Of a stretch of DNA of 64,000 bases, positions 4,355 to 59,604 are shown piece after piece. Every line of letters starts with the position of its first letter. The first letter of the stretch is position 1. The DNA is from Octopus vulgaris. Taxonomy: Eukaryota. Where the stretch lies: assembly GCA_951406725.2 (NCBI GenBank), contig OX597829.1, positions 57,350,001-57,414,000 on the forward strand, given 5' to 3'. The notes below the pieces were generated by a model, which made no database searches, was not told the origin of the DNA, and was given only the letters and a program-made list of their open reading frames with translations. Both the position numbers and the translations under genes were made by a program.

Positions 4355-5138
4355 TTTAAAATATTTTAATTACTGAAATCAAAGTAATTAATGTAACGGT
4401 GAATCGAAGTAAGAAGTAAAAGTAAATAATGTCTTACAGCTATCATGGATCAACGTTTTTGGGATATCTCAGGTGATGGATCACTGGATCAGACACTGAA
4501 TATTCCACCATCAGAGACAAGGTGTGTGTGTGCAGGAAAGTTCTAGACAGAAAATTTAATATAGATAGAAGTATAAAGTTCATCGTGTTCCGGCGGGCAT
4601 GTGGGTTTGTCCACGTATCCGTGTGTCCAGAAAGCAGGTTGAATGAATCATTCAGGTTGGGAGAATAAATCTAGCAGTTAATGGTCATGCGGATATTGTT
4701 AAGAAAGAGATCAGGAGATGTATATAATTTGGGAAGGATTCTCAACCTATCCAATTGTCCGTCTTAGATCTATCTAACTATCCTACTGATCCCTTTTCTT
4801 ACAACATCCGCATGAACATTAAACTACCAGATGTATTCTATCAACCTGAATGATTCACTCAACCTGCTGTCTGGACTTAGCTGGGATTAAACGTAAAGAG
4901 ATACACCTTCACGGATACATAGACAAACCCCCATGCCTTCCAGAACAAGATGAACTATGAACTTTGCACATACACCTTGTCTCTGATGATGGAATACCCA
5001 GTGCATGGAGATGTTGATCAACACATTGATCCATTACCTGCAATATCCCAGAAACAGCTGTAAGACATTATTTTCCTCTTCCTTACGTCGATTCACCTTT
5101 ACATTGATTACTTTAATTACATTAATTAAAATATTTCA
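4355..5138. mobile_element. Non-coding foldback element with hammerhead motifs in both arms (family A)
   Basis: Left arm ~4355-4720 is the diverged reverse complement of ~4780-5138, e.g. gttcatcgtgttccggcgggcatg vs catgccttccagaacaagatgaac. Confidence 0.8.
4978..5067 (+). ncRNA. Type-I hammerhead ribozyme motif with extended stem II (family A)
   Basis: tgtct | CTGATGA | tggaata...tatccca (61-nt stem II domain) | GAAA | cagctg | TA | agaca. Stem I is 5 bp and stem III is the palindrome acagctgt. Confidence 0.75.
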
Positions 5139-5236
5139 AATATGATAAATTTGTCCAGCTTTGGTTTTCTTTTCATCCCCCTTATATATATATATATATA
5201 TATATATATATATATATATATATATATATATATATA

Positions 5237-5632
5237 GGCGCAGGAGTGGCTGTGTGGTAAGTAGCTTGTTTACCAATCGCATGGTTCCGGGTTCAGTCCC
5301 ACTGCGTGGCATCTTGGGCAAGTGTCTTCTACTATAGCCTCGGGCCGACCAAAGCCTTGTGAGTGGATTTGGTAGACGGAAACTGGAAGAAGCCCGTCGT
5401 ATATATGTATATATATATATGGGTGTGTGTGTTTGTGTGTCTGTGTTTGTCCCCCTAGCATTGCTTGACAACCGATGCTGGTGTGTTTATGTTCCCGTTA
5501 CTTAGCGGTTTGGCAAAAGAGACCGATAGAATAAGTACTGGGCTTACAAAAGAATAAGTCCCGGGGTCGAGTTGCTCGATTAAAGGTGGTGCTCCAGCAT
5601 GGCCGCAGTCAAATGACTGAAACAAGTAAAAG
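5237..5632 (+). mobile_element. Full-length tRNA-derived SINE
   Basis: A/B-box-like head (tggctgtgtggt...ggttcagtccc), internal microsatellite, 3' tail ggtggtgctccagcatggccgcagtcaaatgactgaaac plus A-rich end. More than 10 copies in the window. Confidence 0.9.
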
Positions 5633-7214
5633 AAAAAAGAAAGAAAAAAAAATATATATATATATATATATACACACATACAACAAAGAATGAATAAAGA
5701 GGCAACTTTCATCAATAAATATCTTCCACTACTCAATATGAACACATAATACAGAATACTACTAACCTTTCAATTAATACCACTAACCCCCATACATCCC
5801 ATACACCATTCACATTACAGACCTATATCTACCCTAATTGCAACAAATCCGGAACTTCTTTCTTCCCTTACACATAATCGTTTTACTCAGGGACTAATAG
5901 ACCTGACACTGTTCATTAATCGATGTGCATTCACGAAACCGGTATGCTTTTGAATCTCTTTAACAATTCACAATAATGACTTTTATTACTTTTATTCCTG
6001 CCTTAGTTTATCTAATTCTAGATATATATCGTTACTTTTCATAAAAAGCCTTTACTTTTTTTTATTCCCAATGTGCATTTTCGCTTATTTTTCTTCGTAC
6101 TTTCTCCCTATATACACACACACACACACATACACACACACACACACACACACACACACACACACACACACACACACACACACACACATAATGAAAAACA
6201 CCTTGCAAACTGTGATAACAAACAATAAAATAGATAAATAAAGCAAAATTTTAAAATTCATTCTTTCTCTATGTGGCCAGGTCATTCATCCGTCATTGTC
6301 AATGATGACCAAGGACATCACATGGAAGAAGGTGATGGGTCACGGTGTGTCTGGTTGTGGCCAAAAATAAGCAGGTCAACTGATACGCCATGACAACTTT
6401 AAAGGACCAAATATTCCATTTGAAATGCAGAAGGATTTAAAAAGATAATGACGATTTTTTAATGTTTATGCATTAAACCGGTAAAATTGAAGCAAGGCGC
6501 AAGGAAAACAAAACCCAATAATATAACTATTTTAAATATTCTGATTGGGATCGAAACTACTCAAAGTTACAGGAAAGAAGTTGATGGTAGATGAAAACTA
6601 CCATGAGAGATTATATGAAACTCAGGGCAGGTCAAGCCAATGGGGGTGGGTGATGAAGGACATTTTGTTAGCGGTCGATCGAGGAGAAGGACGTGTTTTG
6701 TGTGGTTACGAACCTTTAAGTGATGTGCATCTGAGTCAAACAGGTTTTAAGTGTGTGTATGTATGTGTATGCGTGCGTGATTATCTTCTGTTTTTAATTA
6801 TTTAATTATTTTTGCTGTGCCATCGTGGTGAACGTGGAGCATAAATATTTAAGATGGGAATTGTGGAAACCCATCATACACACACACACACACACACACA
6901 CACACACACACACACACACACACACACACACACACATATACATAAGGTTCAAATGTACAAAACAGAAGACAGAGACAGGTGAGCGAACAACTAAGTGTAT
7001 TAGTTTGACGCCCAGGAAAAGTAGAAAATTGTTTCATGTTTTGAGCCTAGGAAAGAAAATAGAGGGAGAAAGAAATGGCTGGATTAACTGTTTCGCAAGT
7101 TGAATTCCTCTCTTTCTCTCTCTCTCTCTCTCTCTCTCTCTCTACCTAACTACCTACCTGTCTGTCTGTCTGCCAGCCTGCCTGCCAGCCTGCCTGCCTG
7201 TCTGTCTGTCTGTC

Positions 7215-8302
7215 AAATGTATAGATAAACAAAGACAAAGGTATGTATATGAACAACAAGAAAGTATATTAGTTTGACGCATGGGAAAAATTAAAAAGTC
7301 TTTTACGTTTCGAGCTTACGCTCTTCAGCAGAAAGAAATAAGGGGGAGTAAATAGAGAGAATGAAAAGAACATGTTGAGATCAGTCGTTCAATATGGCGA
7401 ATGATTGGAAAAGGAAGAGGTTGAATGAAAGGGAGATAACAATAATGATAGGTTGAATGAAGGGGGCATAATTCATGGTGATCCCAACAAGAGGCGGTGC
7501 ACAAGCGTGTGTGTGTATGTGTGAGAATGGCGTGTGTGAGAGTGTAATTGCATATGTGTGAATGGGAGCAAGTAAGTTTGATGTGTGTGTGCGTGCGTGT
7601 GACGTGTGTATGTGTGTGTGTATATGTGTGTATGTGTATGTGTGTGTTAAGTGTAGCAGTAGATGTGTGCTTTTTCACATGGTGAGTGCACATGTGTATG
7701 TGTGTGCGTCACTGTGATGAAACAGTGTGCATGCGTATAGTGTATGTATGTGGGCGAAAGTTTGTCTTTGTGTGTTGCGTGTATGTGTATATATTGTCTG
7801 TGTTCAGGTTTTATGTGTTTGTGTGGATGCTGAGAAGTGTGTGTGGAGTGGGAAGGTGTTGTGGGTGGGTGTATGTAATGATGAGTGAAGTGAGACAGTG
7901 TGTGTGGATGGGTGTGTAGTTGTGCGTGTGGGTGAGGGTACCAAAGTGGGCAGTATGCAGGTGTGTAGGTGGAAGGTATGGGAGGTGAGTGGGAATCCGT
8001 GTGGAATTGGTATCAGATGAAGGCAGAAAGTGAGTTGAGCCTATGTGGCGCAAAGGAACGAAGAGAGAAGATTAATTCTTGTTCACGGTGAAGGCGGGAG
8101 TCCGGGTGGCCTCTGTGCAGAGATTTTGTAGTGAATGAGAGGTAGAGCGGAAATGGCGCAAGACCGGGGTGTCATTACTGAATCTGATGTCCCAGAAGTG
8201 CTCTGCGAACCGATCAGTCAAGCGGCGTCTCGTTTGACCAATGTACAGGGAAGGACAGAGAAAGCAGGTGATGCCGAAAATGACATTACTTGAGGCGCAG
8301 CT
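7215..8302 (-). mobile_element. Penelope-like element 3' fragment (GIY-YIG endonuclease remnant plus 3' pLTR)
   Basis: Minus strand ~8300-8040 translates CASSNVIFGITCFLCPSLYIGQTRRRLTDRFAEHFWDIR...REQELIFSLRSFAPHRLN, a PLE GIY-YIG pattern. It is followed by a CA-rich UTR and a hammerhead motif. Confidence 0.8.
7299..7336 (-). ncRNA. Minimal hammerhead motif in PLE 3' end (family B)
   Basis: Minus strand: tcttt-ctg | CTGAAGA | gcgtaagctc | GAAA | cg | TA | aaaga. Stem III is the palindrome acgt. Stem I needs a 3-nt bulge. Confidence 0.55.
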
Positions 8303-58400: not shown

Positions 58401-58590
58401 GTTCTATTGCTGATATCTCTGCCTCCATAAATCCTCTAAAGCTTTCCAACATAAACTTGTAGTAGACATCCATAGATTTAGATCTTCTGATAGAACCCTT
58501 CTATTCACTGGTAAGACTAAGTCCACCCCTGAGACAGAAGCAGGATGGTCATGTGGGGCTAACACAACATGTCCACTGAATGTATATATA

Positions 58591-58855
58591 TATATATCTG
58601 TAAATGTAATATGTAACAATTATTTGGTAGCCATGTTAAAACTCTGAGTTTCGGATGCCAAGGTGGAAATCCACACTACCATCTCTTCAGTTATCCGGCC
58701 ATCAAAAAAATGCTATGAGGGACATTTTCCATAGCATTTTGCTGATGGCCAGATAACTGAGGAGATGGCATGGATTTCCACCTCAGCATCTGAAACTCAG
58801 AGTTTTAACATGGCTACCGAATAATTGTTACATATTACATTTACAGATATATATA
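58591..58855. mobile_element. ~260-bp foldback element with two outward-facing hammerhead motifs (family I)
   Basis: Arms ~58591-58717 and ~58730-58855 are near reverse complements. HHRs at 58637-58693 (-) and 58754-58807 (+). Flanked by (TA)n. Confidence 0.85.
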
Positions 58856-59063
58856 TATATATATATATTTATATATATATATATATATATATATATATAT
58901 ATACACACACACACACACACAAAATATGGGGGGTTTAGTTCACAGGTGATCAGAACGACTAGGTACGCTGGGTAAGCGCTGTAATGGATTACCAGGGCTC
59001 CAAGCTCATACCTGAGATGGAAGTTAGAGAACCGTTGTAGATTTCTGATATAGTGGATATATA

Positions 59064-59604
59064 ATTGTTAAAGAGCACAATAAACACAAAGGCAAGACAC
59101 ACTTCTCAAGTCATATACGTTATTATAACTGGAGAAATTTTAATGTCTTACAATTGTTTCTGAGTTATCCCAAAATATAGGATATTCTGTCAATGGAGAC
59201 AAATAAGGAAAATGTGAGGGGTATCGATTAAGGAAACAACGACATGGAGGGATGGAGAAAAGGAATAAAGAAAAGAATCCTATAATCATACATGGATTTA
59301 CGTAGGACTACACCTAAGGACTTATGGACTAACATCTACAATATTGGAATATTGAATTGTGAACTTTTATGCCCTTCTTTCTTCTTTTTCCACTTTTACT
59401 TATTTCATTTTCTCCAGTTCCCCTTGTCATCATTTCCTTAATCTGCACCCTTCACAGTTTCCCTATTTCTCTCCAATGATAGAATATCCCATATTTTGCA
59501 ATATCCCAGAAACAGCTGTAAGACTTCAAAATTTTCCAGTAATGATAACATATATGACTTGAGATGTTTGTATTGCCTTCAGGTTTTATTGTTATCTTTA
59601 ACAA
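59064..59604. mobile_element. Older foldback element related to family A, with degenerate hammerheads in both arms
   Basis: Right arm tct | CCAATGA | ...tatccca | GAAA | cagctg | TA | aga (~59470-59523). Left arm mirror at ~59146-59200 with stem III caattg. Confidence 0.75.

Follow-up and report, generated by a model that had tools for sequence, protein, structure and literature searches.

What kind of mobile element would place hammerhead ribozyme motifs in many apparently unrelated surroundings is the question raised by a 64,000-nucleotide (nt) stretch of the Octopus vulgaris genome (contig OX597829.1, positions 57,350,001 to 57,414,000). This whole stretch is referred to below as the window, and its coordinates count from its first letter. 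An earlier note on this DNA had read the motifs as parts of non-coding, non-autonomous elements spread by Penelope-like elements (PLEs). Our analyses made it highly probable that they are type I hammerheads near the 3' ends of at least 12 PLE families, and that most copies are 5'-truncated stumps of protein-coding elements. The window is 37% GC and rich in microsatellites and in remnants of long and short interspersed nuclear elements (LINEs and SINEs) and mariner elements; the genome comprises 2.8 Gb in 227 contigs.

Hammerhead Motifs in the Window

The strict descriptor demanded CUGANGA, a helix II, GAAA, a self-complementary helix III of 4–12 nt, UH and a helix I of at least 3 bp. It matched the window five times, at 4978–5067(+), 19748–19838(−), 21537–21639(+), 27315–27425(−) and 40864–40946(+), compared with a mean of 0.065 and a maximum of 1 in 200 local dinucleotide shuffles of the window. 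A narrower descriptor without a bulged helix II gave three window matches and the relaxed form five. The earlier note had proposed this comparison with shuffled sequence, and the two frequencies are plainly not equal; five of the six best copies it named passed the strict descriptor at exactly its coordinates, and the sixth (58637–58807) proved to be an inverted pair. Homology to other genomic copies brought the window total to 23 motifs or remnants (24 BLAST pieces, as one copy was split) in 12 families, labeled A, A2, B, C, D, E, F, G, H, I, P and Q. This matched or exceeded its estimate of 15–20 loci in about nine families, and all six of the helix III palindromes it listed occur in the window. 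An Rfam scan of the window showed no hammerhead family among the best 150 of 309 matches, which were microsatellite-like families.

Chance matches in AT-rich repeat DNA would be the simplest explanation of such motifs, and looser searches do generate them. A descriptor tolerating one core mismatch produced 1.7 matches per shuffled window, and 4–5 of its 12 window matches were apparently spurious; a U3-A8/GCA descriptor was noisy (16 matches compared with 2–7 in shuffles), and both were used for leads only. For the strict set, chance is refuted by the excess over shuffles, by conservation within families and by enriched features that lie outside the descriptor, and we accord this explanation next to no probability. 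The feature comparison drew on 364 sequences (1.9 Mb, mostly targeted), which contained 104 distinct strict matches in 31 clusters, with 48 shuffle matches as the control. Two base pairs not demanded by the descriptor were enriched: C15.2-G16.2, present in 21 of 31 clusters and 2 of 48 shuffle matches, and G10.1-C11.1, present in 16 and 4, respectively. Helix II length failed to tell real from chance matches (15/31 vs. 39/48).

Link to Coding Penelope-Like Elements

In nine of the 12 families (A, C, D, E, F, G, H, I and Q), some copies were preceded on their own strand by a PLE endonuclease frame. A frame combining reverse transcriptase (RT) and GIY-YIG endonuclease was identified by Pfam for I and Q, and the other seven families were linked through endonuclease remnants only. 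A list of 148 GIY-YIG matches was obtained from the genome, many of them within open 781-codon frames. Intact frames of this length occur in family Q, where 13 of the 30 loci retrieved had GIY-YIG followed downstream by a U3-A8 hammerhead. A separate frame of about 330–380 codons stands upstream of the 781-codon RT-endonuclease frame of family Q (L222:2406–6087) and overlaps it in loci L223 and L224; Pfam gave no confident family for it. In family I, the hammerhead lies about 0.9 kb past the stop codon in each window copy, and its variant core is common to all 12 family loci.

The family D frame lies about 2.5 kb upstream of the hammerhead and was touched in 9 of 20 upstream-anchored loci; its nearest Atlas clusters are cnidarian or GIY-YIG-named (0.95–0.97). 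This frame was used as the probe for families E, G, C and A. Upstream endonuclease was identified in 2 of 20 loci of E (Hydra-like, and about 1 kb away in long copies), in 2 of 20 of G, clearly in 1 of 20 of C (L257) and more weakly in three others, and as a remnant in 3 of 30 loci of a family A subfamily that is 72–79% alike. For family F, a Neptune-like endonuclease was located upstream in locus L062, where the frame had a weak Pfam GIY-YIG match (E 0.0095, below the cut-off), and in the window at 8135–8302. We took as marks of the Hydra clade a CxCx5C linker, the lack of a CCHH motif, CxxC and CxH near the end, and (TA)n targets. The linker was present in E and G and altered in D and C, CxxC occurred in C, D, E and G, and CxH in C. 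The parent elements of P and A2 were not found in the genome searches.

The copies look non-coding in the window because 5' truncation leaves just the AT-rich 3' end. That most families are instead true non-autonomous retrozymes, that is, ribozyme-defined non-coding RNAs that borrow PLE enzymes, we consider very unlikely. Most copies of every family are indeed short and non-coding, one family (B, below) fits this explanation fully, a 359-nt tandem array with identical hammerheads was present in one sampled stretch (L011), and retrozymes without long terminal repeats (non-LTR) that derive from PLE ends have been described (bioRxiv 10.64898/2026.07.22.740005). Against it stand the endonuclease frames in long copies of nine families, the ragged 5' ends of those families, and the lack of a regular unit like that of B when D, E, G, A and C loci were compared with themselves. 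The same frames rule out that all the families are non-autonomous. Spread by PLEs, the multiplicity of unrelated families and the palindromic type I hammerheads of the earlier note thus stood, and its non-coding, non-autonomous character did not: elements that are non-autonomous and defined by their ribozyme describe B, one family of 12, and partly a second, and not the rest.

Several observations weigh against the reading of the motifs as ends of coding PLEs. For A, C, E, F and G, the coding link was made in few long copies (1–3 loci each), and for A in a diverged subfamily. Pfam missed the D and H frames and detected that of F only below its cut-off, so that the PLE type was assigned from motifs, BLAST and Atlas. 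Some of A, C, D, E, F, G and H, which were followed in partial copies, could be deletion derivatives carrying a dead piece of endonuclease. Each genome search scored 40 candidates (150 for the family search) and was biased towards its query. Perfect palindromes were only modestly enriched (16 of 31 clusters vs. 10 of 48 shuffle matches), helix III self-complementarity itself having been a descriptor requirement, and chance probably accounts for a few of the 31 clusters. Finally, the partner enzyme of family B was not found in the genome searches.

Insertion Ends and Proposed Mechanism

The insertions showed the hallmarks of PLEs: 5' truncation with ragged 5' ends, inverted 5' copies, a one-ended tail and microsatellite targets. 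A (TA)5 tract within 420 nt of the cut site, for which the background is 27%, was present in 19/20 loci of B, 20/20 of D, 18/19 of E, 12/12 of I, 12/14 of G, 8/9 of C and 10/15 of A, with loci lacking a readable anchor omitted. The insertions keep 40–350 nt past the cut site, and each family has two classes of end, as at about 193 and 296 nt (B), 43 and 110 nt (E), and 80 and 157 nt (G). In the PLE of the green anole, reverse transcription starts at two internal sites that define the tail, and hammerhead mutants insert normally in vitro (PMC11167929). The two classes of 3' end observed here match the two start sites of that element.

By analogy with the anole PLE, we infer how these copies may have arisen. 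Copying into (TA)n tracts was likely performed by the element's own reverse transcriptase-endonuclease, which would nick AT-rich DNA and begin reverse transcription at one of two internal RNA sites, 40–350 nt downstream of the hammerhead. Synthesis would usually stop early or fold back. Priming downstream of the hammerhead together with early termination would retain the hammerhead in almost every stump, at the expense of the gene. Families B and H are likely two passengers on the same PLE machinery.

Family B, a Non-Coding 583-nt Unit

Family B is a closed non-coding unit, the only one of the 12 families shown to be so. Its window copy, at 19456..20030 on the minus strand, is a young element slightly under one permuted 583-nt unit in length with its 3' end in (TA)n, and contains the intact hammerhead at 19748–19838(−), with a predicted cut between 19754 and 19753. 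The top 40 genomic matches were 98–100% identical. At 10 of 20 loci, the unit is preceded by its own 3' part, which closes the 583-nt repeat, and locus L305 has two intact motifs 583 nt apart. Four of these ten copies cross the upstream cut site, and linear RNA released by cleavage at both hammerheads could not have templated them. A circular RNA or a multimer left uncut could have, and we consider a template of either kind likely for the family. Contigs of three runs, whose type we guessed, joined the end of the window copy to its start, a joint that genomic tandems also give and that is uninformative on circles.

The unit is 36% GC, its longest ATG frame has 38 codons, and no B-box match was detected in it. 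It is predicted to be strongly folded as a circle (z −6.3 vs. 40 shuffles), and a comparison of two subfamily copies showed the long helix II to be kept through two double and one single compensatory change. An inverted piece was present in 9 of 20 loci, one of them distant and doubtful. Family B occurs mostly as monomers and partial dimers scattered through the genome, which show inversions of the PLE type and end in (TA)n. These features identify family B as a non-autonomous PLE passenger of retrozyme type.

A second young retrozyme-like family, absent from the window, is the array in L011 (2272–4548, contig C1), which has seven identical short hammerheads spaced at 353–359 nt, five on one strand and two inverted.

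Family H and Its tRNA-Like Head

Full copies of family H have a sharp 5' end at a tRNA-like segment, continue with an (AAT)n tract and then the hammerhead, and close with a fixed tail. In three loci, coding sequence is joined to this head, which stands directly after the PLE stop codon, and family H is thereby shown to end a coding element with a tRNA-like segment. The endonuclease, which we take from its motifs to be Penelope/Poseidon-like, lay upstream in 2 of 30 head-anchored loci and in L309, where a piece of RT was also located farther upstream. This coding sequence rules out family H as a stand-alone SINE. Both window copies are without the head: one at 43166..43213(+), in which C3 is altered, and a decayed, 5'-truncated one at 56919..56963(−) within a mariner remnant.

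Among the top 30 copies, 28 had no coding sequence directly upstream of the head: 22 abutted an inverted copy, six a flank or short fold-back, and two ran into coding sequence. The start of the head is fixed in most of the 30, and most carry motifs that resemble A and B boxes. The tRNA origin of the head is only partly supported. Three results weigh against our reading of this family: a relaxed ARAGORN search called tRNA-Ser(act) in just two of 30 heads and an undetermined tRNA in two more, the Rfam tRNA model matched none of three copies, and a (TA)n end was present in just 4 of 30.

We think that the tRNA-like segment likely served as a polymerase III promoter from which short SINE-like templates were made. 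Alternatively, family H might be merely the terminal repeat of a coding PLE, its 5' ends piling up where RT stalled at the structured head rather than where short transcripts began. We regard this as a serious though somewhat improbable alternative. It accords with the direct junction of RT/endonuclease sequence and head in three loci, and the search query, which began at the head, favored copies that have one. Stalling should place the 5' ends within the structure or 3' of it, but most copies begin within a few bases of its first nucleotide; moreover, the query did not penalize copies running farther upstream, and yet only two of 30 did so.

Core Variants, Dimers and Cleavage

Folding predictions for helix III alone, as isolated oligomers with 8–9-nt palindromes, gave +2.1 to +2.4 kcal/mol for the hairpin and −6 to −11 for the homodimer. 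Cleavage, where it occurs, is accordingly predicted by these models to need a dimer. The earlier note had invoked two copies cleaving as a dimer. The window has six close pairs of same-family motifs, every one of them inverted and so unable to form a cis dimer, for which tandem copies like those of B are needed. Most copies in the genome are probably inert.

Two families have altered cores despite their success. Family I carries C at position 13 in 12 of 12 loci, with coding top copies that are 96–97% identical. In the window, it forms an inverted pair of 5'-truncated coding copies (36512..40262) with GIY-YIG frames recognized by Pfam at 37492–38406(−) and 38620–39243(+), and with variant hammerheads (U3-A8, A13C, palindrome ACCGGT) at about 36582–36622(−) and 40121–40160(+). 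In these hammerheads, beside A13C, the register of helix I can slip so that a 3' A-run pairs with core U3 and U4; the family is young and abundant. Family F has U at position 6 in the best 14 of 26 copies and was represented by 11 copies in 800 kb of other genomic sequence. The window has an A6U variant at 11912..11949(+) and a short hammerhead with palindrome ACGT and a base other than A at position 6 at 7299..7336(−). About 0.8 kb upstream of the latter is the endonuclease remnant 8135..8302(−), 70% identical to its L062 counterpart upstream of F, and a tail remnant that has lost its core was identified by homology at 6949..7049(−).

The base at the cut site is U in families E, H and P. The family E copies in the window are an inverted head-to-head pair, 58636–58695(−) and 58752–58808(+), with palindrome ACTCAGAGT. 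Both retain two core boxes, and it is because of a bulged helix II and the U at the cut site that the pair fails the descriptor. Directly past the tail of this pair, a separate decayed Hydra-like endonuclease remnant was observed at 58201–58392(−), with no hammerhead after it.

These variants raise the possibility that the hammerhead fold is mainly a protein-binding or dimerization signal for which cleavage is dispensable. The core changes in abundant or coding families, the U at the cut site of three families, insertions that are not bounded by the cut site and the anole PLE, in which catalytic mutants did not affect insertion (PMC11167929), would all be accommodated by such a role. Most families nevertheless keep a perfect core across otherwise unrelated sequence, as expected under selection for catalysis, and U3-A8 is a known compensatory pair (PMC4209133). 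On balance, we judge a role without cleavage unlikely. In view of the sequence retained past the cut site, the changed cores of F and I and the in vitro result in the anole, we would not call the elements ribozyme-defined, as the earlier note did.

Other Copies and Neighboring Features

The strict match of family A (4978..5067, +) has an intact core, a 61-nt helix II domain and the palindrome ACAGCTGT. Its element spans about 4183–5180, including an inverted 5' copy with a decayed core that was identified by homology (4430..4519, −). Elsewhere in the genome, one family A copy lies within a larger block that occurs at least six times on contig C29 (L330, L331, L339–L342) and once on C10 (L343). 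The related family A2 is represented by an inverted pair, 59057–59274(−) and 59395–59612(+), with decayed 5' core boxes. Family C has two strict matches with intact cores: a divergent subfamily copy with a 76-nt helix II domain at 21537..21639(+), and 40864..40946(+), in an element at about 40476–41236. The strict match of family D (27315..27425, −) has an intact core and an 86-nt helix II domain and belongs to a young 5'-truncated end of a coding Hydra-like PLE (about 27145–27655, −). Family P contributes a short U3-A8 hammerhead with palindrome AATT at 55620..55656(+).

Family G occurs as two inverted pairs. In the first, 18497..18591(−) has intact core boxes and G at the cut site, and its partner 19149..19243(+) has an altered A9. 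In the second, 53530..53613(−) is a 5'-truncated copy with only the 3' half of the motif, and 54274..54370(+) is decayed, with G8 altered and G at the cut site. The first pair lies beside the family B element and a family Q stump, so that 18390–20300 holds three PLE-type insertions side by side in TA tracts. The stump is the 3' end of a coding PLE (20068..20250, +; its 781-residue RT-endonuclease frame is elsewhere) and includes a U3-A8 hammerhead remnant with an altered A15.1 at about 20157–20200(+).

Six putative, isolated 3' half-motifs at 5935, 12405, 25647, 26103/26126, 33964 and 50873 had no convincing relative among the loci compared. The region 26080–26160 is an imperfect inverted repeat in which two GAAAC-palindrome half-motifs point outwards, and it likewise had no relative among those loci. 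The window also contains a Tc1/mariner element at 23607–25243, with 229-bp inverted ends and a DDE_3 frame at 24332–25075, and decayed LINE frames at 9442–10974, 14737–17603, 34804–36323 and 44597–47159, the last two with Pfam RVT_1.

Density in the Genome and Wider Reading

The genome sample consisted of 80 other 10-kb stretches taken at round coordinates on large contigs, which are not random draws. It contained 28 strict matches in 800 kb, distributed over 15 of the 80 stretches, compared with a mean of 1.6 in shuffles. The strict density is thus 35 per Mb (bootstrap 16–60), and extrapolates very roughly to about 10^5 strict motifs genome-wide. Since 15% of resamplings of the sample reached at least five matches per about 64 kb, the window is typical; a local hotspot is ruled out, and the local "dense radiation" of the earlier note gives way to an unexceptional stretch. 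Homology copies in the sampled 800 kb numbered 14 for H, 11 for F, 8 for P, 4 each for B and E, and none for D and Q. Within the window, the elements occupy about 12.7 kb, or 20% (some TA tract counted), well short of the claim that its AT-rich junk is largely ribozyme elements.

For the hammerhead in PLEs, RNA processing, circle formation and the part of a mere passenger are all conceivable roles. This genome lends itself to natural comparisons: among its young coding families, some keep a perfect core and others have an altered one, and beside them stand a young non-coding 583-nt passenger with near-identical copies and a tRNA-headed derivative. We tentatively advance a joint reading that we would not yet call probable. 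Some 10^5 intact-core hammerheads would belong to more than 30 PLE-linked families, several of them still mobile. One coding Penelope would have acquired a polymerase III promoter of tRNA type immediately behind its stop codon, and from it about 50,000 SINE-like copies would have arisen, each with a hammerhead and dependent on the enzymes of PLEs instead of those of LINEs. Spread would have been equally effective in families with a 55–90-nt helix II or with A6U or A13C, so that the fold would be a recognition or pairing module and cutting optional. The results also bear on annotation: many short "unknown" or "SINE" repeats in such genomes are PLE 3' ends.

Comparison with Known Systems

Two findings here, the numbers of motifs and the tRNA-headed PLE end, have no counterpart in the literature we located, in which we found no account of cephalopod hammerhead counts or of such an end; Repbase, Dfam and the Zenodo library of PMC13282606 may hold the families. 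The parts of the literature compared likewise contained no 55–90-nt helix II domains in metazoan PLE hammerheads, no density of about 35 per Mb, no tRNA-like head in a coding PLE end and no family-wide A6U or A13C cores, which may be described in Lunse et al. 2017. Bonar et al. 2026 reported 31 recently active Penelope-like families in an octopus, with no mention of ribozymes in the part compared.

Among the closest known systems are the Hydra-clade PLEs of Craig et al. 2021 (PMC8557442), a clade defined by the CxCx5C linker and for which hammerheads are listed; File S2 of that paper includes Hydra-1_Obim of Octopus bimaculoides. The shared features are a C-terminal endonuclease with this linker (read here in E and G), (TA)n insertion, inverted 5' copies and a hammerhead near the 3' end with a long palindromic helix III, and several families in that list have the ACTC-x-GAGT palindrome of family E. 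What sets families A, C, D and G apart is their helix II domains of 55–86 nt, compared with about 10–25 nt in the Hydra entries of File S2, their even 8-nt palindromes and 3' non-coding sequence of up to 2.5 kb, whereas the published Hydra elements are mostly under 3 kb overall.

The minimal PLE hammerheads of metazoans (Cervera and De la Pena 2014, PMC4209133) are alike in having many families per genome, mostly as single motifs from truncated PLEs ("probably" so, in that paper), opposite-strand pairs 100–700 bp apart, the U3-A8 variant, an extra base after A9, G10.1-C11.1 and predicted dimer cleavage. The counts of 2,000–9,000 per genome in that study are far below our extrapolated 10^5, the descriptors being different, and the part compared makes no mention of A6U or A13C as family-wide cores. 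Similarly, the axolotl has 126,247 motifs (PMC7229834) in 28.2 Gb, so that our extrapolated 35 per Mb would be several times its density, again with different descriptors.

Family B resembles the metazoan non-LTR retrozymes (Cervera and De la Pena 2020, PMC7229834; Li et al. 2026) in being non-coding and strongly folded, with a type I hammerhead and dimers or partial tandems, and its 583 nt falls within the 51–972 bp range of Li et al. 2026 (bioRxiv 10.64898/2026.07.22.740005). It differs from them in being mostly dispersed, with PLE-type inversions and (TA)n ends. Families A, C, D, E, F, G, I and Q, which have endonuclease frames upstream, are not coding-free as such retrozymes are. In the anole element Poseidon_Ac (Frangieh et al. 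2024, PMC11167929), RT starts at two internal sites 3' of the hammerhead, which would explain the two classes of 3' end seen here, and a preference for AT-rich targets is shared; the start sites were determined biochemically there and are deduced from insertion ends here.

The Schistosoma Sm-alpha/Sj-alpha SINE-like elements (PMC6765202) are, like family H, short repeats in which a polymerase III-type promoter (predicted in H) is followed by a hammerhead. Family H differs from them in being dispersed and in having a minimal hammerhead of PLE type, an inverted 5' arm and a one-ended tail, and in being, at three loci, physically the 3' end of a coding PLE. The general phenomenon has thus already been published, and the elements of the window are mostly of a known kind, with family H a possible new variant.

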